From a virus (taxonomy: Duplodnaviria > Heunggongvirae > Uroviricota > Caudoviricetes), in IMG/VR virus record IMGVR_UViG_2563366924_000004: a stretch of DNA of 37,953 nt; one strand, 5' to 3'. Below, piece by piece: positions 1 to 37,953 of this stretch; within the stretch, counting starts at the first letter, position 1, and each line of letters opens with the position of its first letter. Under the pieces are notes generated by a model that saw only the letters and a list, made by a program, of their open reading frames with translations, was not told where the DNA came from and ran no database searches. The translations under genes and the position numbers were made by a program.

Positions 1-1284
1 TTACAGACTTCTGGAAGGTTGCGCAGCTCTTACAACACGCGGTTGATCTTCCGCAGCGTCTTCCAGCGCACTTAAATCACGGTCTTTCACCTCTGGCATT
101 TTCAGCGCAGAGATTAAACCAATCACTGAATATGCCATGATCATAATGGCGATCGGATACCAGGATTCCGTCATGGTGCAGAAAATACCCGCCAGGATAG
201 GACCAAAACCGGAAGCGATAAGACCACCAATTTCTTTAGAAATAGCCATCCGGGTAAAGCGGTTTTTACAGCCGAACATTTCTGCCATGGTAATGTTTTC
301 CAGAGCAAATAATCCCAGCACCGCACAGTTATGAATCACAATCAGTGCAACCATAATGGTGCTCGGGGCATAGCTTTTATCTACAATGATAGAAAGCATT
401 GGCCATGCCAGCACAATCGCGGAGGTATTCATAATAATATACGGGATCCGGCGACCAATTTTATCGGATAACCAACCAAGGAACGGAATGGTCATAAAGC
501 CGAGAATCGAACTGATCATCAATGCATCTGTTGGAATTGCTTTGTTAAACAATAACGTCTGCACTAAATAGCCTGCAAGGAAAGTCTGAATTAACCCGGA
601 GTTACCCGCCTGACCAAAACGCAGCCCTGTTGCCAGCCAGAAGGATTTGCTCTGGAACATGCTACCAGCAGGTGCAGGTTTTGCTGTCGGTTGGTTACTG
701 TCGTTAACCTTCTCAAAGACCGGGCTTTCTTTCAGATTCATACGCAACCAGATAGCAAAGACCATCACGACAACGCTCGCCAGGAACGGTATACGCCATC
801 CCCACGCCAGCAGTTCCTCTTTACTGAGAATGAAGAACATAAAGGCCCAGATTGCCGTTGCGCTCAAGGTTCCGCAGTTAGTTCCCATAGCCACAAATGA
901 GGAGATAATTCCGCGCTTACCTTTTGGCGCATATTCCGCCAGCATCGTACCGGCACCGGAAATTTCCGCACCTGCACCCAACCCCTGAATAATACGCAAC
1001 GTCACCAGCAAGATGGGTGCAAAAACACCAATCTGTGCATAGGTCGGTAACACACCAATTAAGGTGGTACAGATCCCCATCATGGTGATGGTAATAAAGA
1101 GCACTTTTTTACGCCCTATTCTGTCGCCCATTTTGCCGAAAATAAATGCTCCGACAATACGCGCCACATAACCTGCACCGTAGGTTCCCATTGCCAGAAT
1201 TAACGCCATTGCCGTTGATGATTCAGGAAAAAATATTTCATGAAACACTAACGCTGCGCCGAGCGAATATAACTGGAAATCCAT
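1..1284 (-). CDS. ydfJ: MFS-family inner membrane transporter, complete 427 aa
   Basis: Uninterrupted minus-strand ORF; multi-helix hydrophobic protein with MFS signature GKMGDRIGRKK; stop codon at positions 1-3. Confidence 0.8.
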   Translation of the reverse strand: MDFQLYSLGAALVFHEIFFPESSTAMALILAMGTYGAGYVARIVGAFIFGKMGDRIGRKKVLFITITMMGICTTLIGVLPTYAQIGVFAPILLVTLRIIQGLGAGAEISGAGTMLAEYAPKGKRGIISSFVAMGTNCGTLSATAIWAFMFFILSKEELLAWGWRIPFLASVVVMVFAIWLRMNLKESPVFEKVNDSNQPTAKPAPAGSMFQSKSFWLATGLRFGQAGNSGLIQTFLAGYLVQTLLFNKAIPTDALMISSILGFMTIPFLGWLSDKIGRRIPYIIMNTSAIVLAWPMLSIIVDKSYAPSTIMVALIVIHNCAVLGLFALENITMAEMFGCKNRFTRMAISKEIGGLIASGFGPILAGIFCTMTESWYPIAIMIMAYSVIGLISALKMPEVKDRDLSALEDAAEDQPRVVRAAQPSRSL

Positions 1285-1886
1285 AATTCACAGGTGTTTT
1301 TTCCCATCCTGTGGTTTCCTTGGCGTTTTCTAGGTTTTTTCAGATAGTTGCATTTTTTTAAAAGCATCCTAAGTTCGATCTCAGTGTCTATCTGGGGCCT
1401 ATTTCTGTCCCATATATGCCCCAAAAAACTCCCCAACAGATAAGTAGTTTTTTCATGGATTTACGCGTAAAATCAATAACGGCTGGAAATCATTCAATAC
1501 TCGCACTATCGAAAAATTTACCAGCCAACCGCAGCACGTTCTTGCATAAGGCGTGTCTGCGGTTTTTCAACTATTCAGATACATCACTCCCATCACATTC
1601 ATTCCTCCGCATCAAAGGCATATAGGCTATATCACCTTGATATTTTTCTTCTTCAGATAAAAATTGTTATCTATGTATACTTTTAAACCCAATCCGTGTA
1701 GAGTCTCTGCATAAGATAGTTTGCAGTTGCCACTTCAGATTGCGCCATAAACCGCCTGATTTTTGCCGCCACCTGTTAGCATTCCTGTATACCTGAAACG
1801 ACAATGTTTATCTACGAACTTTAAGAACACCCAAGATAAAAATTGTCAACTATATCATATATAACACATTACTAATTCGAGGCTAT

Positions 1887-2000
1887 ATGAACAGCATACT
1901 GATAATCACTTCTCTCCTTATCATATTCAGCATTTTTAGTCATGCCCTAATAAAATTAGGGATTGGCATATCCAATAACCCAGACAAAACCGATGTATAA
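1887..2000 (+). CDS. hypothetical small hydrophobic protein, 37 aa ([37 protein letters not shown])
   Basis: ATG preceded by GAGG 4 nt upstream; one predicted transmembrane helix; not in supplied ORF track (below size cutoff). Confidence 0.25.
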
Positions 2001-2068
2001 GTCAACATATCCTGAATCAGACATACAATATCGCAATGAAAATCAATAATATTTTAAGGAATATCTTC

Positions 2069-2302
2069 ATGAAATCAAAAGACACCCTAAAGTGGTTCCC
2101 TGCGCAGCTTCCTGAAGTAAGAATTATCCTAGGGGATGCTGTAGTGGAAGTAGCAAAACAGGGAAGACCTATCAATACCAGAACATTGCTTGATTACATT
2201 GAAGGAAACATAAAGAAAAAATCATGGCTGGATAACAAAGAATTATTACAAACAGCGATATCAGTTCTTAAAGACAACCAAAATTTAAATGGTAAAATGT
2301 AA
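2069..2302 (+). CDS. ydfK: YdfK/YnaE-family small prophage protein, 77 aa
   Basis: ORF 2036-2302; start chosen at internal ATG (MKSKDTLKWF) with AAGGA 9 nt upstream; sits beside a pin-type recombinase as in Qin/Rac prophages. Confidence 0.7.
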   Translation: MKSKDTLKWFPAQLPEVRIILGDAVVEVAKQGRPINTRTLLDYIEGNIKKKSWLDNKELLQTAISVLKDNQNLNGKM

Positions 2303-2618
2303 TATAACAAACTTACTTTTTTATCATTTTTCCACTTTAACAACATTTTGCTCCACTTTTCCACGACCAAACAAATTAAAATCTGGTTAAAATAACACGC
2401 AACACTATTCTTCTTCCTTGAGTCTGCCCGGAACTCGAAAAACAAACCGAGTTAAAGCCATTTTTCACAAAATCGATTTTGGGTCTCACCAAAATTACGG
2501 GGTTGCATACGCATTCGTTTATTTTCGAACGTGTACATACAAATATGCACAAAAATAATCAAAATTATTTTCTGAGATGCATTATGATATGAACACCAAT
2601 TTCGTATAGAGTCTCACT

Positions 2619-3209
2619 ATGTCTCGAATTTTTGCTTACTGTCGGATATCAACGCTGGATCAGACCACCGAAAATCAACGCCGGGAAATCGAAAGTGCAG
2701 GTTTTAAAATCAAACCTCAGCAAATAATCGAAGAACACATTAGCGGCTCAGCAGCAACCAGTGAGCGTCCTGGTTTTAACCGGTTGCTTGCTCGCCTGAA
2801 ATGTGGTGATCAATTGATTGTGACAAAACTGGATCGCCTTGGTTGTAATGCAATGGATATCAGGAAAACAGTGGAACAACTGACCGAAACAGGTATCAGA
2901 GTGCATTGCTTAGCATTGGGGGGCATTGACCTGACCAGTCCAACAGGAAAAATGATGATGCACGTAATTTCAGCAGTCGCTGAATTTGAACGAGACCTTT
3001 TACTTGAACGCACTCATTCCGGGATAGTAAGAGCCCGCGGCGCAGGGAAACGTTTTGGTCGACCACCTGTGTTAAATGAAGAACAGAAACAGGTGGTATT
3101 CGAACGAATTAAGTCAGGTGTAAGTATAAGTGCCATTGCCCGGGAATTCAAAACCTCGCGGCAAACCATTTTAAGAGCCAAAGCAAAACTTCAGACACCT
3201 GACATATAA
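2619..3209 (+). CDS. pinQ: serine recombinase, Pin (PinQ/PinR)-type DNA invertase family, 196 aa
   Basis: N-terminal resolvase/invertase catalytic region (YCRISTLDQ with serine nucleophile) and C-terminal HTH; matches my recollection of PinQ/PinR. Confidence 0.85.
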
Positions 3210-3306: not shown

Positions 3307-3882
3307 CTACGGCAGTGCTGGCCATTCAATATCCTGTGCAGTTGATGTATCAACACGGTTCAGCAACACCCGATACTTTTTCCAGGCTTCCAGCAATGAG
3401 GTTTCTTCCTCCGTTGCGATTTCCAGATCTACAGCATCCTGAAGTGGCGCTATATGCTCACTGGCTACCTGCATCAGGCTGTTTTTTGTTTCTTCCGCCT
3501 CCCGGATCCGGAACAGTTTTTCTGCTTCCGTATCCTTCACCCAGACTGTACCGTTCCACTTCTGAAACTCCCCTTCCGGCGATAACCAGGTAACATTTTC
3601 CGGTAACGGACCGAGTTCAGAAATAAATAACGCGTCGCCGGAAGCCACGTCATAAACCATTTTACCCCGATGATCTTCAACGAGATGCCACGATGACTCA
3701 TCACTGTTGAAAACAGCCACGAAGCCAGCCGGAATATCTGGCGGTGCAATATCGGTACTGTTTGCTGGCAGACCTGTATGAGGCGGAATATATGCATCAC
3801 CTTCACCAATAAATTCATTAGTTCCGGCCAGCAGATTATAAATTTTTATGGTCCGTGGTTGTTCACTCATTCTGAATGCCAT
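3307..3882 (-). CDS. tfa: tail fibre assembly protein (Tfa), 191 aa
   Basis: Directly downstream of and abutting the side tail fibre gene; Tfa-family length and sequence. Confidence 0.85.
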
Positions 3883-13819: not shown

Positions 13820-16395
13820 CGTCCACCTCCGGAGAACAGACCACCATCGCGCATCTGTGCCTGGATTTCATCACGGGCACCCTTGCGGGCCATGTCATAC
13901 ACCGCCTTCATCATCTGTGGACCTGGCAGACCATTCGTACCGTCGTTCTGAATCACCACGTGATTGTTCTGATTAAAATTAATGCCTTCAGCCCGCCGCA
14001 TCTGCGCCGGACTTCCGGCACCGCCCACATAACCACCTTCCGCATAGCCCCGCATCAGGCGGTACAGGTTGCCGACACCAATCCGGCTGGTTGCCTCCTT
14101 CGTGAAGACAAATTCACCACGGTGAACAATCCCCGCTGGCTCATATTTGCCGCCGGTTCCCGTAAATCCCCCGGTCGCAAAATGGAATTTCGCCGCAGCG
14201 GCCTGAATGGCTGTACCGCCTGACGCGGATGCGCCGCCACCAACAGCCCCGCCAATGGCGCTGCCGATACTCCCGACAATCCCCACCATTGCCTGCTTAA
14301 GCAGAATTTCTGTCATCATGGACAGCACGGAGCGGGTGAAGCTGCGCCAGTTCTGTTCACTGCCGGTCAGCATCGCCGCCATATTCTGCGCAATACCATC
14401 AAAGGTCTGCGTGGCTGCACTTTTAACCTGCGACATACTGTCCGTGGCACTCTCTTTCCACTCGCTCCAGCCGGACCTGAGGCCTGCCATCCAGTTCCCG
14501 CGAAGCAGGTCTTCAGCCGCCCAGGTCTTTTTCTGCTCTGACATGACGTTATTCAGCGCCAGAGGATTATCGCCATACTGTTCCTTCAGGCGCTGTTCCG
14601 TGGCTTCCCGTTCTGCCTGCCGGTCAGTCAGCCCCCGGCTTTTCGCATCAATAGCGGCCCGTTTTGCCCGTTGCTGCTGTGCGAATTTATCCGCCTGCTG
14701 CGCCAGCGCGTTCAGGCGCTCCTGATACGTAACCTTGTCGCCAAGTGCAGCCAGCTGGCGTTTGTACTCCAGCGTCTCATCTTTATGCGCCAGCAGGGAT
14801 TTCTCCTGTGCAGACAGCTGGCGACGTTGCGCCGCCTCCTCCAGTACCGCGAACTGACTCTCCGCCTTCCACAAATCCCGGCGCTGCTGGCTGATTTTCT
14901 CATTTGCTCCGGCATGCTTCTCCAGCGTCCGGAGTTCTGCCTGAAGCGTCAGCAGGGCAGCATGAGCACTGTCTTCCTGACGATCGCCCGCAGACACCTT
15001 CACGCCGGACTGTTTCGGCTTTTTCAGCGTCGCTTCATAGTCCTTTTTCGCCGCCGCCATCAGCGTGTTGTAATCTGCCTGCAGAATTTTCCCGTCCTTC
15101 AGTGCCTTGTTCAGTTCTTCCTGACGGGCGGTATATTTCTCCAGCGGCGTCTGCAGGCGTTCGTAAGCCTTCTGCGCCTCTTCGGTATATTTCAGCCGTG
15201 ATGCCTCAGACTCGGCCCAGTCCTTTGCTGCCATCTCTCTGGCCTTTTCAAGATCGGCCTGCAACGTGGCGGCTGAAAGCCCAAGTTGCGCATTCGCTCT
15301 GTCCTCCCATGCTCCCCGGAGATTGGCAAGAAATGCTGAGGTTTTACCGCGCCGGTGGCTCCGGCTCTGATACCACTGCCATTTTTTGTCCGCCTCATCA
15401 AAAGCCTTTTCTGCTTTCTCCAGCATTCCCTGGGCAGTGTCCGGGCGACCAATATCCAGCACCGAATCCCACATGGATTTGAATGCCCGTGCTGTCCTGT
15501 CTGCCCAGGTCTCCAGCGTGCCCATGTTCTCTTTCAGGCGGCGGGTCTGGTCATCAAACCCTTTCGTTGCGGCCTCGTTCGCCGCCTGCAATGCCCCGGC
15601 TTCATCTCCGGAACGCTGCAACTGAGCAACATACGCAATCTGCTCCGCCGTCACGTTATGGAACTGACGTGCCATCGCTGTCAGTCCCGACGTCGGGTCT
15701 GTGGTCAGCTTCCCGAAGGCTTCAGCGACCTTGTCCACCTCCACGCCGGATGCAGAGGAGAAACGCGCCACACTCTGGCTGATCGCCTCAAACTGCTCAC
15801 CACCACGCACACCGGCATTCACCAGCGCCGTCAGTGACTCGCTGGTCTGGTTAAACGTCAGCCCTGCCGCCTGCCCGGCTCTGGACAGGACCAGCATACG
15901 ATCTGCCGTCAGTCCCGCCTGATTGCCGGAAAGGACCAGCGTTTTGTTGAAATCGGACAGGGTTGAGTTGCCCTGATACCAGGCATACGCCAGCGCACCG
16001 GTCGCCACCGCCAGCGAGGTGGCCCCCACCATCGGCAGGGTGATCGCACCGGCAAGCCCCCTGAACATGGGGATCATCCCGCCGAAGGAGTCCTTAACCT
16101 GACCACCCTGTTGCAGCAGGATCAGCCACGGGCTTTGCCCGCCTGCAAGCTGCGTGGCCACGTCGGTGAACTGTGCAGGCAGCATACGCATGGCGGCTTT
16201 ATACTGCCCGACGGAAATCCCCGCTTTCTGTGCAGCCAGCGCCTGTCGGCTCAGCGACTGTTCAACGACTGCCGCTGTTTTTTTCGCATCAGTTTCCGTA
16301 CCGGAAAAATGACGCCTGACTCTGGCCATCTGCTCGTCAAATCTGGCCGCATCCAGACTTAAATCAACGACCAGATCGCCTACCGGTTCAGCCAT
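13816..16395 (-). CDS. H: tail tape measure protein H, 859 aa
   Basis: Long coiled-coil-rich protein with Gly-rich C-terminus; lambda H-like N-terminus MAEPVGDLVVDLSLDAARFDEQ. Confidence 0.9.
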   Translation of the reverse strand: MAEPVGDLVVDLSLDAARFDEQMARVRRHFSGTETDAKKTAAVVEQSLSRQALAAQKAGISVGQYKAAMRMLPAQFTDVATQLAGGQSPWLILLQQGGQVKDSFGGMIPMFRGLAGAITLPMVGATSLAVATGALAYAWYQGNSTLSDFNKTLVLSGNQAGLTADRMLVLSRAGQAAGLTFNQTSESLTALVNAGVRGGEQFEAISQSVARFSSASGVEVDKVAEAFGKLTTDPTSGLTAMARQFHNVTAEQIAYVAQLQRSGDEAGALQAANEAATKGFDDQTRRLKENMGTLETWADRTARAFKSMWDSVLDIGRPDTAQGMLEKAEKAFDEADKKWQWYQSRSHRRGKTSAFLANLRGAWEDRANAQLGLSAATLQADLEKAREMAAKDWAESEASRLKYTEEAQKAYERLQTPLEKYTARQEELNKALKDGKILQADYNTLMAAAKKDYEATLKKPKQSGVKVSAGDRQEDSAHAALLTLQAELRTLEKHAGANEKISQQRRDLWKAESQFAVLEEAAQRRQLSAQEKSLLAHKDETLEYKRQLAALGDKVTYQERLNALAQQADKFAQQQRAKRAAIDAKSRGLTDRQAEREATEQRLKEQYGDNPLALNNVMSEQKKTWAAEDLLRGNWMAGLRSGWSEWKESATDSMSQVKSAATQTFDGIAQNMAAMLTGSEQNWRSFTRSVLSMMTEILLKQAMVGIVGSIGSAIGGAVGGGASASGGTAIQAAAAKFHFATGGFTGTGGKYEPAGIVHRGEFVFTKEATSRIGVGNLYRLMRGYAEGGYVGGAGSPAQMRRAEGINFNQNNHVVIQNDGTNGLPGPQMMKAVYDMARKGARDEIQAQMRDGGLFSGGGR

Positions 16396-28623: not shown

Positions 28624-28830
28624 CTTCATTTTCACTTTTTTAAATCCAACGACAGACGGCTGGCATTTAAGTATTGTGAAATATTATCAAATGTAATCAT
28701 CATTGATTTACAAAAGATACATTTTGCCCCGAAAGGATTCATGTCAGAAACATCAAAAGATGATGTTCTATACTGGGAACCATGACAACACGGGCATCTA
28801 AAGTGAATATGGTTTGTAATATTGTCTACC

Positions 28831-29043
28831 TCAAAGCGCCACTACATGAACAGCGGCAGGACCTTTAGGTCCGTTCTCAATACCAAATTCAACTTCCTGA
28901 TTCTCAGTTAATGTTTTGAAATCGTTGCTCTGAATTGCTGAGAAATGGACAAACACATCTTTGCTGCCATCTTTCGGCGTGATGAAACCAAAACCTTTTT
29001 CAGGGTTAAACCATTTTACTAAACCAGTCATTTTGTTAGACAT
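28831..29043 (-). CDS. cspI: cold shock protein CspI, 70 aa
   Basis: CspA-family cold shock domain with RNP motifs KGFGFI and VFVHF; matches my recollection of CspI. Confidence 0.9.
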
Positions 29044-29393
29044 AATTATTACCTTTTGAAGAAATTAGCCCTTGGGCAGAATGGTCCGAAAAAAAATATC
29101 AGAGAGAAAAACCAACAAGGAAATCTCAAGAGGTACAAATAATAAAATTATAACAATGACTGCTTCAGATAAATTTGTAACAAACCAGAACACCATTAAC
29201 GCATGATTAACCACCCATAGCAAGGATTACTTTTGTAAAGAAAAACACAGCAATGAAAGAATAGCTTTATTTATTAATAAAACGTGTCATTCTGATTAAG
29301 ACCTTTTATCTTACCCTTAAGATTTCAGGAATTTTGGCTCATGGAAGAGTCCTTTTTATTTAAATTTTACATTCCGCGGGTAATGACTCCAAC

Positions 29394-29897
29394 TTATTGG
29401 TAGTGTTTTATGTTCAGATAATGCCCGATGACTTTGTCATGCAGCTCCACCGATTTTGAGAACGACAGTGACTTCCTGCCCAGCCTTGCCAGATGCTGCC
29501 TCAGATTCAGGTTATGCCGCTCAATGCGCTGCGTATATCGCTTGCTGATAACGTGCAGTTCTCCCTTCAGGCGTGATTCATAAAGCGGCCAGCCATCCGT
29601 CATCCATACCACGACCTCAAAGGCCGACAGCAGGCCCAGAAGACGCTCCAGCGTGGCCAGCGTGCGTTCACCGAATACGTGCGCAACAACCGTCCTCCGT
29701 ATCCTGTCATACGCGTAAAACAGCCAGCGCTGGCGCGATTTAGCCCCGACATAGCCCCACTGTTCGTCCATTTCCGCGCAGACGATGACGTCACTGCCCG
29801 GCTGTATGCGCGAGGTTACCGACTGCGGCCTGAGTTTTTTAAGTGACGTAAAATCGTGTTGAGGCCAACGCCCATAATGCGGGCAGTTGCCCGGCAT
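29394..29897 (-). CDS. insB: IS1 InsB reading frame, 167 aa (normally expressed as InsAB fusion by frameshift)
   Basis: Matches IS1 InsB sequence. Confidence 0.95.
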
Positions 29898-30091
29898 CCA
29901 ACGCCATTCATGGCCATATCAATGATTTTCTGGTGCGTACCGGGTTGAGAAGCGGCGTAAGTGAACTGCAGTTGCCATGTTTTACGGCAGTGAGAGCAGA
30001 GATAGCGCTGATGTCCGGCGGTGCTTTTGCCGTTACGCACCACCCCGTCAGTAGCTGAACAGGAGGGACAGCTGATAGAAACAGAAGCCAC
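29816..30091 (-). CDS. insA: IS1 InsA, 91 aa
   Basis: Matches IS1 InsA sequence ([43 protein letters not shown]). Confidence 0.95.
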
Positions 30092-30141
30092 TGGAGCACC
30101 TCAAAAACACCATCATACACTAAATCAGTAAGTTGGCAGCA

Positions 30142-31106: not shown

Positions 31107-31390
31107 TTTGAGATTGTGGTGCTTTTTGTGGGAGTCATCCACTTACGCACTTTGTTTTGCCATGCCAGCAGTTAGCTTCTGCTGTAAAACTATTCATGCA
31201 GCAAACCTGCACTTCACCACAATGGTTAGCATACTTTTCCTGATTAAGATTTTGCCAAATATGCTGGCCATTGTTTCATGTATTGGACCTCCTTAATTTT
31301 TATTAAAGAAATCCAATATTCACTACTCTGTCCGTATCTCTACTCAGGCATCAGCCTTCTTCGTTATCGTATACAGACGAGCGATGAATT

Positions 31391-31606
31391 TTAATCAGTA
31401 ATGATGACATTTGCTGCTGCAGGACCTTTAGCACCACTCTCTATAGAGAAGGTAACCTTTTGACCTTCAAATAAGGTTCGATAATTATCATTCTGAATCG
31501 CAGAAAAATGCACAAACACATCTTTACTACCATCAACAGGAGAAATAAAGCCGAAACCTTTATCAGCGTTAAACCATTTTACTAAACCAGTCATTTTATT
31601 TGACAT
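31391..31606 (-). CDS. cspB: cold shock protein CspB, 71 aa
   Basis: CspA-family cold shock domain; matches my recollection of CspB. Confidence 0.9.
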
Positions 31607-31906
31607 TCTACATTCCTTAACTTGAGCCTTTCGGCATAAATGGTTTGCATAACAGAAACGACTTCGTACTTAATTGGAGAGACTCAAAGAAGGAATAAGT
31701 GAATAACACCTGAAATGAGAACTGCTTTAGTAAACTACTTCGTATATCGTCTGTTCTTCAAACCGACGCAATCATTAACGCATAGTTGAACATATGAAGC
31801 AATGTTTATTTTAGACATCCAGCCATCTTCAACCCCATCAAAAAACTATAGCTTTCTTCAGGAACGTGTGTATAGTGCGCCAAGTTATCAGTATTAAGGA
31901 ATTTTT

Positions 31907-33306: not shown

Positions 33307-34355
33307 TTACGCCAGTACGCCAATTGCCAGCGCGCGATCGATAAAACGAAATATCAGCTCCAGTTGGGAGCCATACTTCTCTTCAAATGCCACTGTATCC
33401 GTATGCAGCTCGTTGTGATGCTTTCTGCACAAAGGCAACACAAAGAGATCATGTGCTTTTGTTCCCATTCCGCCCTGCCCGTGACCAATCAGATGATGCG
33501 GATCGTCGGCTGGCATACCGCAGCAAGCATACGGCTGTGTCTTAACCCAGCGTGTGTATTTCTCCTTAACCCACCGGTGACGTTTAGGCAGCTTCATGAA
33601 AGATTCCGGAGACTCTGGATCAACGGTGATGCTTACCACCGTCTTTTCCTGTGATGGGTTTTGTTGCTGGTGGGCGTGAGGCAACGGTGCAAGATTTTTT
33701 GTGCGCTGTTTCAATATGCTGGTGGCGGTCTGCTCTCCCGGTACGATGTCGCTTTCGCGGTACACCGAGCAGATTTTTTCCGCTGGTAATCCCAGCGAGC
33801 GACGTAATACCGCTTCCGGTAGCGCGTCCGCCAGCTGATTGCGGACCGCCCACCAGGAAATTCAGCCAGAGATAATTCACGCTCCTGCGTACCGCTTATT
33901 GCGTGACCGATGACGTCAATCATCCATGCTGACAGGTTTTGATGAGCAAGTTGCTCGAGTGATTCGGATGTCTGGTCACGCAGCTGGTTGTCGCAGTGCC
34001 AGCACAACACCATTGCGCCGGTACCATATCGGTGAATAACGGTTTCGCTGTGATGATAATCGCCGTGTGGCCACTGGCAGGATTTAATATGGCGCAACAG
34101 CCAGTCAGACAATGCACCAGCACCACCAGCAGCACGAATTACCCGTGTGTTACTGAAAAACGGCAGCAATGTTTTGTCTTCCACCAGCGGCTGGCGAACG
34201 GCAGGAACGACCCCGGACGGCAGATTACGCATGCTTTTCGGTTCCGGCTCCACCAGTACCCGGGTATTGTGGAATACCGGCATGGATTCACGGCCCGGCT
34301 TAACGACCACCAGCCCGAGTTCCGGTACCAGAACAGGTCGAAGTAATACCCGCAC
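33307..34355 (-). pseudogene. ydfU: DUF968 (YdfU-like) gene split by a single-nucleotide frameshift
   Basis: Two overlapping ORFs (33711-34355 and 33307-33765) in different frames; shifting frame near 33855-33865 restores a continuous reading of about 349 codons (..LAE.PWWAVRNQLADALPEAVLRRSLGLPAEKICSVYRESDIVPGEQ..). Confidence 0.6.
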
Positions 34356-34356
34356 G

Positions 34357-34635: not shown

Positions 34636-34900
34636 CGGTTGTCTCTGCTGGCGCAGCAGGTGCCAGTTGTTCAGGCTGGCGTATAAAGTATAAATAAACT
34701 GGTTCCAGTGTAAAGCCCCTACATTAATGGAATAAAAGTCAAACAACAGATTGTTGGGATAAACACAACGCTTATTATTAAAAGCGATTAGATAAATTAA
34801 ATTTTAATGTTATGCAATTTTACCAGATCACCATAACATCTCGTTTGAAACCACCAAAACAACAACCATATCAATATTGATTATGTTAAAGTGAGTAAAT

Positions 34901-34987
34901 ATGGAAAACAACAAATCTGCACATTACGCTCCTTTTTTATCTGTGATACTTTTTGTTTTATGCTGTGTGTGGGCATTATTTTTATAA
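34901..34987 (+). CDS. hypothetical small hydrophobic protein, 28 aa (MENNKSAHYAPFLSVILFVLCCVWALFL)
   Basis: Short ORF with one TM-like segment, followed by hairpin at 35010-35023. Confidence 0.2.
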   Translation: MENNKSAHYAPFLSVILFVLCCVWALFL

Positions 34988-35093
34988 AAATATTTACAGA
35001 TAAAATAAACCCGCCGAAGCGGGTTAAGTGCGGGTGCATTGAGGATGCCTGACACATCAGAGGTGGCGAGGGATTTCTCCCTCGCCTGGTCTC

Positions 35094-35249
35094 TTACTCC
35101 TCAGGTTCGTAAGCTGTGAAGACAGCGACCTCCGTCTGGCCGGTTCGGATTCGTACCTCGCAGAGGTCTTTCCTCGTTACCAGTGCCGTCACTATGACGG
35201 TTAAACAGATGACGATCAGGGCGATTAACATCGCCTTTTGCTGCTTCAT
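35094..35249 (-). CDS. hok: Hok/Gef-family type I toxin, 51 aa
   Basis: MKQQKAMLIALIVICLTVIVTALVTRKDLCEVRIRTGQTEVAVFTAYEPEE; AAGGAGAAG RBS; in-frame upstream mok-like extension to 35306; 3' hairpin at 35065-35086. Confidence 0.85.
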   Translation of the reverse strand: MKQQKAMLIALIVICLTVIVTALVTRKDLCEVRIRTGQTEVAVFTAYEPEE

Positions 35250-35864
35250 AGCCTGCTTCTCCTTGCCTTTCGGCACGTAAGAGGCTAACCTACATGTGTC
35301 TAGCATGAAATTGGCCTCAGATTAATGTTAAGCGTCTTGCAGGACGCGTAATGTTAACTGGGGCTTTTCTCTATCTGCCTTTGGTGTTCATGCCTGAGGC
35401 AGATAGCCTCAAGCACCCGCAGCAATTCTACTTAACTCACGTCACCTCGCCAATATAAAATCAATCAGAAAGGCGATCCGTAAGAACAACAGCAAGACAA
35501 TAAATTGCCATTACAGCCGCAATAGCTAGCGCACATTTGAGAACCAGCACGACAACCTCCTGTATTGGACGTACACCAGTCCTGATAAATATGAGGCTGT
35601 CTCATCATTGATTCAATATAACTATTGGGTATAGTTTCTGTGATTTTGTTCTGTAGAAATGGAACACAACAACCAGTCTCCACCAGCACTTCTTTAAATA
35701 CGCCAAGTCCGACGCAAGCTAACCTTCTAGTCCGCTTTGAGCGAACTGTGGAAGCTCGCAAATGTTGTTACATCTGATGAAGGCATTACTCAAAGGAGGG
35801 GATAGTAGTCAACGTGGAGCAGGCCATGTTAGTATTTTTATACAATTCGACTAAGGGAAAAACA

Positions 35865-36053
35865 ATGAGGCTTTACATAATAGGAAATGGATTTGACATG
35901 CGTCATGGCTTACCAACAGGATACAAGCACTTTAAGTCGTATGTAGAAAAAAATGACCAAGATCTATATGACGCGATAGAAGAATACATTCCTGCTGGGG
36001 ACGAGTGGAATGAGTTAGAAAATGCTTTAGGTGAAATTGATTATGAGCTTTGA
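35865..36053 (+). pseudogene. AbiH-like abortive infection gene, N-terminal 62 codons only, truncated by IS3
   Basis: MRLYIIGNGFDMRHGLPTGYKHF matches the AbiH-family N-terminal motif as I recall it; stop codon TGA is the first 3 nt of the IS3 terminal repeat. Confidence 0.6.
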
Positions 36054-36973
36054 TCCTACCCACGTAATATGGACACAGGCCTAAGCGAGGTTCTTGTTTT
36101 CAAATTGTTCCGGACTGAGGCCGCCACACCAACTGTGCCGCCGCCACCGATTGTAATCACATTCGATATAATTAAACACCGTTGCCCGCATTATTTCCCG
36201 GCTGATAAAGTGTTCTCCATGGATACATTCCACTTTCAGCGAATGAAAGAAGCTTTCCACGCAGGCATTATCGTAGCAGCAACCTTTTGCGCTCATACTT
36301 CCACGCAGATTATGCCGCTTCAGTTGCGCCTGATAATCTGCTGAACAGTACTGGCCTCCACGGTCCGTGTGAACGATAACGTTCCGGGGCCTCTTACGCC
36401 GCCACAGCGCCATCTGCAGGGCATCGCAGGCCAGTTGCGCCGTCATGCGTGGCGACATTGACCAGCCAATAACGGCACGTGACCACAGGTCAATGACCAC
36501 TGCCAGATACAGCCAGCCTTCATCTGTACGTAAGTACGTGATGTCTCCTGCCCACTTCTGGTTCGGGCCACTGGCGTAAAAATCCTGCTCCAACAGATTT
36601 TCTGACACAGGCAGGCCGTGTGCGCGGTAGCTGACCGGGCTGAACTTCCGGGAGGCCTTTGCCCTCAGTCCCTGACGGCGCAGGCTTGCCGCCACGGTTT
36701 TTACGTTAAAGGGGTAACCCTGAGCACGCAGTTCATCCGTCAGGCGTGGGGCACCGTAACGCTGTTTTGACCGGGTAAAAGCCGCGAGGACAACGCTGTC
36801 GCAGTGTTGGCGGAACTGCTGACGCGTGCTTATCCTTGTCCGCCGCTGACACCACGTATACCAGCCGCTGCGGGCCACCCGGAGCACGCGGCACATTGCT
36901 TTGATGCTGAACTCAGCCTGATGTTTTTCAATAAAGACATACTTCATTTCAGGCGCTTCGCGAAGTATGTCGC
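36051..36973 (-). mobile_element. IS3: IS3 insertion sequence, partial (right end and orfB), interrupted by IS30
   Basis: Terminal repeat TGATCCTACCCACGTAATATGGACACAGGCC at 36051; complete orfB; sequence stops where the IS30 end begins. Confidence 0.9.
36081..36947 (-). CDS. insF: IS3 transposase orfB (InsF), 288 aa
   Basis: Matches IS3 orfB sequence with DDE integrase core. Confidence 0.9.
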
Positions 36974-37953
36974 TGTAGATTCAATTGGTCAACGCAACAG
37001 TTATGTGAAAACATGGGGTTGCGGAGGTTTTTTGAATGAGACGAACATTTACAGCAGAGGAAAAAGCCTCTGTTTTTGAACTATGGAAGAACGGAACAGG
37101 CTTCAGTGAAATAGCGAATATCCTGGGTTCAAAACCCGGAACGATCTTCACTATGTTAAGGGATACTGGCGGCATAAAACCCCATGAGCGTAAGCGGGCT
37201 GTAGCTCACCTGACACTGTCTGAGCGCGAGGAGATACGAGCTGGTTTGTCAGCCAAAATGAGCATTCGTGCGATAGCTACTGCGCTGAATCGCAGTCCTT
37301 CGACGATCTCACGTGAAGTTCAGCGTAATCGGGGCAGACGCTATTACAAAGCTGTTGATGCTAATAACCGAGCCAACAGAATGGCGAAAAGGCCAAAACC
37401 GTGCTTACTGGATCAAAATTTACCATTGCGAAAGCTTGTTCTGGAAAAGCTGGAGATGAAATGGTCTCCAGAGCAAATATCAGGATGGTTAAGGCGAACA
37501 AAACCACGTCAAAAAACGCTGCGAATATCACCTGAGACAATTTATAAAACGCTGTACTTTCGTAGCCGTGAAGCGCTACACCACCTGAATATACAGCATC
37601 TGCGACGGTCGCATAGCCTTCGCCATGGCAGGCGTCATACCCGCAAAGGCGAAAGAGGTACGATTAACATAGTGAACGGAACACCAATTCACGAACGTTC
37701 CCGAAATATCGATAACAGACGCTCTCTGGGGCATTGGGAGGGCGATTTAGTCTCAGGTACAAAAAACTCTCATATAGCCACACTTGTAGACCGAAAATCA
37801 CGTTATACGATCATCCTTAGACTCAGGGGCAAAGATTCTGTCTCAGTAAATCAGGCTCTTACCGACAAATTCCTGAGTTTACCGTCAGAACTCAGAAAAT
37901 CACTGACATGGGACAGAGGAATGGAACTGGCCAGACATCTAGAATTTACTGTC
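36974..37953 (+). mobile_element. IS30: IS30 insertion sequence, left end to window edge (partial in window)
   Basis: Left terminal repeat TGTAGATTCAATTGGTCAACGCAACAG at 36974 followed by the IS30 transposase gene. Confidence 0.9.
37036..37953 (+). CDS. insI: IS30 transposase (InsI), N-terminal 306 codons; runs off the window end
   Basis: MRRTFTAEEKASVFELWKNGTGFSEIANILGSKPGTIF matches IS30 transposase; no stop before the window edge; absent from the ORF track for that reason. Confidence 0.9.
   Translation, partial: MRRTFTAEEKASVFELWKNGTGFSEIANILGSKPGTIFTMLRDTGGIKPHERKRAVAHLTLSEREEIRAGLSAKMSIRAIATALNRSPSTISREVQRNRGRRYYKAVDANNRANRMAKRPKPCLLDQNLPLRKLVLEKLEMKWSPEQISGWLRRTKPRQKTLRISPETIYKTLYFRSREALHHLNIQHLRRSHSLRHGRRHTRKGERGTINIVNGTPIHERSRNIDNRRSLGHWEGDLVSGTKNSHIATLVDRKSRYTIILRLRGKDSVSVNQALTDKFLSLPSELRKSLTWDRGMELARHLEFTV

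Follow-up and report, generated by a model that had tools for sequence, protein, structure and literature searches.

In Escherichia coli K-12, the Qin prophage is integrated between ydfJ and rspB, and the genes next to its Hok-type toxin gene follow the order hokD-relE-relB-ydfV-flxA. Insertion elements of the IS3 family depend for their mobility on OrfAB, the active transposase that arises as a frameshift fusion of the two element-encoded reading frames. The canonical lengths of IS3 and IS30 (ISfinder) are 1258 bp and 1221 bp, respectively. AbiH, described in Lactococcus lactis and represented by Pfam family PF14253, is an abortive-infection protein whose mechanism is given as unknown in a review (PMC13064643). 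The locus described here brings members of these groups together at the end of a 37,953-nt stretch of DNA, which we refer to below as the window. All parts of the locus belong to known families, and RefSeq already labels them "AbiH family protein," "IS3-like element IS3 family transposase (incomplete)," "IS30-like element IS30 family transposase," hokD, and "rspA (incomplete)." What the present analysis adds is limited to a corrected reading of the locus, as a probable deletion scar rather than a split gene, and a SIR2-like model of an enterobacterial AbiH.

The window aligns with E. coli MS 115-1 (NZ_CP146665.1) over 37,954 positions at 99.987% identity, and the annotation of that strain shows the region to be a lambdoid prophage of the Qin type in which the lambda-like head and tail genes form a full set. 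The first position of the window marks the end of the ydfJ' pseudogene, and its last falls within an IS30 element. The window shares with Qin of K-12 the ydfJ-rspB integration site and the same late and regulatory backbone, comprising ydfK, pinQ, tfaQ, nohA, ynfO, ydfO, gnsB, cspI, essQ/D, cspB, cspF, ydfT, ydfU, and hokD. It differs in having kept the lambda-like head and tail genes, in carrying the stub of an abiH gene where K-12 has relBE-ydfV-flxA, and in belonging to a lineage that has lost the whole dicA-int arm together with rspB and part of rspA. Because K-12 has relBE at the place where abiH is found here, the slot beside hok is one that holds variable toxin-antitoxin or defence cargo.

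Other signs of decay are visible in the MS 115-1 annotation of the prophage, namely, an IS1 element that lies beside a frameshifted DUF1327 gene in the lysis region (approximately 29395-30092) and a frameshift in ydfU (DUF968; approximately 33308-34356). Rfam searches also returned, on the minus strand, an IS009 RNA match of 226 bits near pinQ and ydfK (3341-3539) and two cspA-type thermoregulator leaders upstream of cspI and cspB (28804-29189 and 31375-31767).

The abiH stub and the elements beside it

The features at the end of the window are as follows, with the evidence for each in parentheses.

35094..35249, minus strand: hokD-type Hok toxin gene, 51 aa (Pfam HOK_GEF, E=1.2e-23, 82.9 bits)
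35094..35306, minus strand: mok-like ORF overlapping hok (ORF list)
35244..35418, minus strand: hok/sok regulatory region (Rfam RF01794, full length 1-157, 119.9 bits, E=5.6e-27)
35865..36053, plus strand: putative abiH pseudogene stub, codons 1-62 of a 289-codon gene plus a TGA from IS3 (Pfam, PADLOC, junction comparison)
36051..36973, minus strand: IS3 segment, inverted, 923 bp, from the right terminal repeat to canonical nt 336 (terminal repeat, rve domains, RefSeq)
36081..36947, minus strand: IS3 orfB, intact, 288 aa (HTH_21, rve, and rve_2 domains)
36974..37953, plus strand: IS30, left 980 bp of 1221 bp (left inverted repeat, HTH_38 and rve domains)

The toxin gene, annotated as hokD (WP_000813254.1) in MS 115-1, adjoins the stub, as the original prediction had proposed. 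The Hok peptide, the overlapping mok frame, and the sok/leader region by which a type I hok/sok system is recognized are all present, the last of these scoring well above the RF01794 (sok) gathering score of 59, and judged by these components the module beside the stub appears to be intact.

The ORF at 35865..36053 consists of 62 codons followed by TGA. Its product has the N-terminal sequence MRLYIIGNGFDMRHGLPTGY, of which the first residues are MRLYIIGNGFD, and it had been singled out on the strength of this AbiH-like N terminus. The assignment was borne out by Pfam AbiH (PF14253), which the stub matched with 70.4 bits (E=3.4e-19; curated cut-off, 30.9 bits), and by a PADLOC AbiH match with E=8.4e-9, so that the match far exceeds what would be expected by chance. 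The Pfam match covers profile positions 1-68 of 260; thus, the stub passes the family score cut-off but does not reach the full-length domain of about 260 profile positions.

By comparing the window with an intact allele of the gene, we could place the break after codon 62. At the break, the intact allele reads ...GATTATGAGCTT|ATCCTTCAA and the window reads ...GATTATGAGCTT|TGATCCTACCCACG. Past GATTATGAGCTT, the intact gene continues from codon 63 onward as ATCCTTCAAAAC, and the window has IS3 there. The last abiH codon before the break is codon 62 (CTT, 36048-36050), and the TGA stop codon that follows it (36051-36053) consists of bases 1-3 of an IS3 terminal inverted repeat, namely, the right one in reverse orientation, which reads TGATCCTACCCACGTAATATGGACACAGG from 36051. 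The point of truncation and the origin of the stop codon were therefore predicted exactly.

RefSeq starts the stub at an ATG at 35826, giving a 75-aa product (WP_000959906.1). We consider the start at 35865 more likely because it fits the AbiH family better: counted from MRLY, residue 3 is the first that the Pfam profile covers, family conservation starts at L3-Y4, many homologues are annotated at 289 aa, and residues 1-10 of the 302-aa RefSeq version of the intact protein have pLDDT values below 50 in the AF2 model described below. A Shine-Dalgarno-like AAGGGA lies 6 nt 5' of this start codon; for promoters and terminators, positions 34900-36100 yielded no more than weak matches to the consensus. 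With the 62-aa stub as the query, only 13 homologues were retrieved, all of them short fragments, and the intact allele was used for a second search.

Downstream of the stub, the IS3 segment retains a complete orfB, as had been noticed from the sequence, and is interrupted at 36974, where the left inverted repeat of IS30 (TGTAGATTCAATTGG) begins exactly; the sequence from this position reads TGTAGATTCAATTGGTCAACGC. The IS30 transposase ORF (WP_001254932.1; HTH_38 and rve domains) opens at 37036 and is left incomplete by the end of the window. In MS 115-1, the whole IS30 can be followed; it is 1221 bp long and is flanked by GC on either side, a 2-bp duplication, and it is nested in IS3 as a simple insertion. 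We rebuilt IS3 from the window and MS 115-1 by taking out IS30 and one GC, and the product was exactly 1258 bp long with both terminal inverted repeats. In the canonical orientation of the rebuilt element, orfA occupies nt 65-361 and orfB lies in the -1 frame. An A-AAA-G slippery site is found at nt 328-332, and IS30 sits between nt 335 and 336, 3-4 nt downstream of it; no uninterrupted IS3 copy spanning this site was present among the retrieved loci. With IS30 lying between orfB on one side and orfA plus the slippery site on the other, this copy of IS3 cannot make its own transposase. A complete orfB is thus not the same as a working IS3, and the copy is immobile unless it is helped in trans.

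The far junction and the missing DNA

The abiH::IS3 junction was found in 23 complete genomes, 13 of which match the structure of the window base for base. Since the window ends inside IS30, the far junction had to be read from near-identical genomes, and a strain-specific difference is possible. We inspected 2 of the 23, MS 115-1 and ECONIH4. The same succession is found in either genome: the abiH stub, one part of IS3, IS30, the other part of IS3, and a C-terminally truncated rspA, followed by ynfA, ynfB, and speG. The IS3/IS30 composite of MS 115-1 measures 2481 bp (1258 + 1221 + 2). It is flanked by CTT on the abiH side and by GTA on the rspA side; the absence of a 3-bp target duplication points to a deletion or recombination junction.

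To size the missing DNA, we used strain 503025, which has the uninterrupted abiH allele and also one additional IS3-family element, inserted in its exonuclease gene. In this strain (locus L005), the abiH break corresponds to position 1004 and the right flank of MS 115-1 resumes at 14977, inside rspA, so that 13,972 bp of the 503025 arrangement are absent from MS 115-1. On the abiH side, the missing stretch comprises abiH codons 63-289, a gene for a 463-aa protein, a DUF977 gene with a neighbouring hypothetical gene, and ydaT. Two HTH regulators in the dicC/dicA position, ydfA, ydfB', dicB, and ydfD make up its middle, and on the far side are the exonuclease gene (exo), xis, int, rspB, and the last 63 codons of rspA.

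We then searched the complete genomes with a 2165-bp query made up of the 3' part of abiH and the 463-aa gene. It matched 93-94 genomes, of which 65 cover at least 80% of the query. The 23 junction genomes were absent among the matches listed, which represent essentially all of the 65 full-query carriers and part of the shorter-match group. The counts agree with this, as 115 genomes carry the 5' part of abiH and 115 - 23 = 92, against 93 carriers of the 3' part. An intermediate, with IS3 in abiH and the 3' half still attached, was not found among 5,426 complete genomes.

Taken together, the presence of rspA' beyond IS3, the lack of an IS3 duplication, and the absence of the junction genomes from the listed 3' abiH matches point to a deletion junction and not to nested simple insertions. 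We conclude that the locus is, with little doubt, the scar of a deletion within a cryptic lambdoid prophage of the Qin type that has ydfJ as its insertion site. Because no intermediate was found, we infer the order of events and the mechanism of the deletion from the end products. In the original state, a stand-alone AbiH defence gene encoding 289 aa would have lain between hok/sok and the replication/immunity region. IS3 would then have come to join codon 62 of abiH directly to an rspA gene without its last 63 codons, with the loss of about 14 kb. The most likely route would be recombination between two IS3 copies, one in abiH and one in rspA, or an IS3-mediated adjacent deletion. Loss of the integrase, excisionase, and immunity genes means that the prophage cannot excise and is locked in place, and loss of rspB and part of rspA means that the strain has lost RspAB.

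The original prediction had read the locus as nested IS insertions, IS3 in abiH and IS30 in IS3, with the rest of the abi gene beyond the IS elements. The inner half of this reading stands, given the GC duplication that marks IS30 as a simple insertion into IS3; the outer half gives way to the deletion scar, given the unlike flanks of IS3. It could be argued that the window stops before the far junction, that abiH in some other strains has a simple IS1 insertion and keeps both of its halves, and that the 3' part of abiH therefore lies just past the end of the window, from where precise excision would restore the gene. Against this, MS 115-1 and ECONIH4, which share the same exact junction, have rspA' beyond IS3, where the reading frame of abiH is not continued; the CTT and GTA flanks leave no duplication; and the junction genomes are missing from the 3' matches listed. 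We therefore regard a restorable, merely interrupted gene as very improbable.

Just as improbable is an inversion, in which two inverted IS3 copies would have recombined and moved the 3' half of abiH and the early region of the prophage elsewhere in the chromosome. The absent target-site duplication would suit an inversion as well as it suits a deletion, but the order rspA'-ynfA-ynfB-speG and its orientation relative to the prophage are those of the reference strain, and the 3' abiH and 463-aa sequences were not found for the junction genomes among the matches listed. For annotation, the deletion scar means that the stub should be treated as a pseudogene remnant at the border of an IS3-bordered deletion of about 14 kb and not as a recoverable interrupted gene, a correction of little wider import.

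Intact AbiH, the stub, and recurrent disruption

The uninterrupted allele, WP_001297700.1, is present in strain 503025 and in about 60 other complete genomes. It is annotated as 302 aa, or 289 aa counted from MRLY, and it matches Pfam AbiH with 233 bits over positions 1-258 of 260. The AbiH similarity thus extends well beyond the N-terminal motif, a point on which the original prediction could have failed, and this comparison of sequences supports the view that the stub ORF is the N terminus of a true AbiH-family gene.

We built an AF2 model of the intact allele from a 42-sequence homologue alignment and obtained a mean pLDDT of 86.2 and a pTM of 0.83. In a fold comparison, the model resembled SIR2 proteins (DHS-like NAD-binding). 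PDB sequence and profile searches with intact AbiH gave nothing meaningful (best E=0.4 and E=0.11), so that the SIR2 relationship is visible in the fold comparison only. In the model, N138 and H158 (numbered from MRLY) each directly follow a beta-strand, which would place them where a sirtuin-type site would hold its Asn and His. The SIR2-like fold makes intact AbiH a presumptive effector of abortive infection that would consume NAD+. Although it concerns strains other than that of the window, the model of this enterobacterial protein backs the published suggestion that AbiH may act through NAD+.

The 463-aa gene lies directly 3' of intact abiH, outside the window (locus L001, 6525-7916), and its product has no Pfam, PADLOC, or PHROG match. 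We considered it as a conserved partner of AbiH and rejected it in this role, as tblastn found no homologue of it beside the AbiH homologues at 32 loci of other species. The lack of this neighbour in other species indicates that AbiH is a stand-alone protein, as it is in PADLOC. The 463-aa gene could be separate prophage cargo, perhaps another defence gene.

Set against the intact protein, the stub holds little. In a 23-sequence alignment, 12 of 51 positions invariant in the family fall within residues 1-62 and 39 fall outside. From the subfamily motifs, it has GNGFD and lacks DWSDAYHHDYQYE (79-90), FNYT (137-140), HIHG (156-159), LGH (169-171), and GHSxxxVD (233-240). Of the fold, the stub would retain no more than one beta-strand (the first), the loop that holds GNGFD, and a small number of helices. 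With one of the six strands of the sheet, we infer that it is a non-functional pseudogene. That the 62-aa (or 75-aa) product is instead a functional small protein under selection, such as a regulator or a dominant-negative fragment, is the least credible of the alternatives, for although the ORF is identical in 23 genomes and retains its Shine-Dalgarno-like AAGGGA, a single recent shared event would also produce this identity, most of the Rossmann sheet and 39 of the 51 invariant residues are absent, and its end is set by an IS terminus and not by an evolved stop codon.

The gene has also been disrupted in other ways. In strain 99-3165, a different, intact IS3 cuts abiH after about 186 codons, and the DNA up to the exonuclease gene is lost (locus L043, 3776-5534); a break point at about 186 codons is common to about 29 genomes. 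In at least four genomes, IS1 splits abiH with both halves kept (locus L044, 3027-4712). With the 23 junction genomes included, roughly half of the approximately 115 carriers have a disrupted abiH. Judging from these sequences, independent events have inactivated abiH in the prophage slot several times over, perhaps a hint that the gene carries a fitness cost.

The junction between IS3 and IS30 is likewise found elsewhere. Of 5,426 complete E. coli genomes, 34 have the identical junction (nt 335/336), namely, the 23 with abiH::IS3 and 11 records with the junction at other places, plasmids included. Inspection of 4 of these 11 showed unrelated contexts, namely, dgcT/ycdU, ygeQ, an LT-enterotoxin plasmid, and an IS-rich region by a truncated ypjA/ehaD autotransporter gene. 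All three complete IS3/IS30 composites examined lacked IS3 target duplications and bordered truncated genes. IS30 is known to prefer hot-spot targets (PMC9333248). When we sought a palindrome by eye at the IS30 site in IS3, about 4 of 12 positions were symmetric. The recurrence could reflect an IS30 hot spot in IS3 or the spread of one chimera by IS3-IS3 recombination. We are doubtful of a broader interpretation, by which an IS30 hot spot disarms IS3 and leaves a recombination-prone composite that marks deletion junctions and, separately, the abiH disruptions reflect a fitness cost.

Comparison with known systems

The stub has in common with AbiH of L. lactis the N-terminal IIGNGFD block and the match to the family HMM. 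The intact E. coli allele goes further in that it spans the whole Pfam domain, stands alone like its lactococcal counterpart, and is predicted to adopt the SIR2-like fold reported for lactococcal AbiH (PMC13064643). The copy in the window differs in retaining only 62 of 289 codons and in being located on an enterobacterial lambdoid prophage and not on a lactococcal chromosome or ICE. In comparison with SIR2-domain effectors such as ThsA, SIR2-HerA, DSR, and Avs5-SIR2, intact AbiH showed no sequence-level similarity in the PDB profile searches, and it has no partner ATPase or sensor domain.

The insertion elements conform to IS3 and IS30 of E. coli in their terminal repeats, lengths, and ORF organization and in the 2-bp duplication of IS30. 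Unlike canonical IS3, however, the copy here has its frameshift region split by IS30 and is without a 3-bp duplication, the latter being explained by its position at a deletion junction.

Whereas hokD and relE are immediate neighbours in Qin of K-12, the window has a full sok/mok leader region, and on this evidence its hok/sok copy may be an active module. The locus exemplifies both the exchange of cargo beside hok in Qin-type prophages, with relBE in K-12 and abiH here, and the erosion of such cargo by IS elements.
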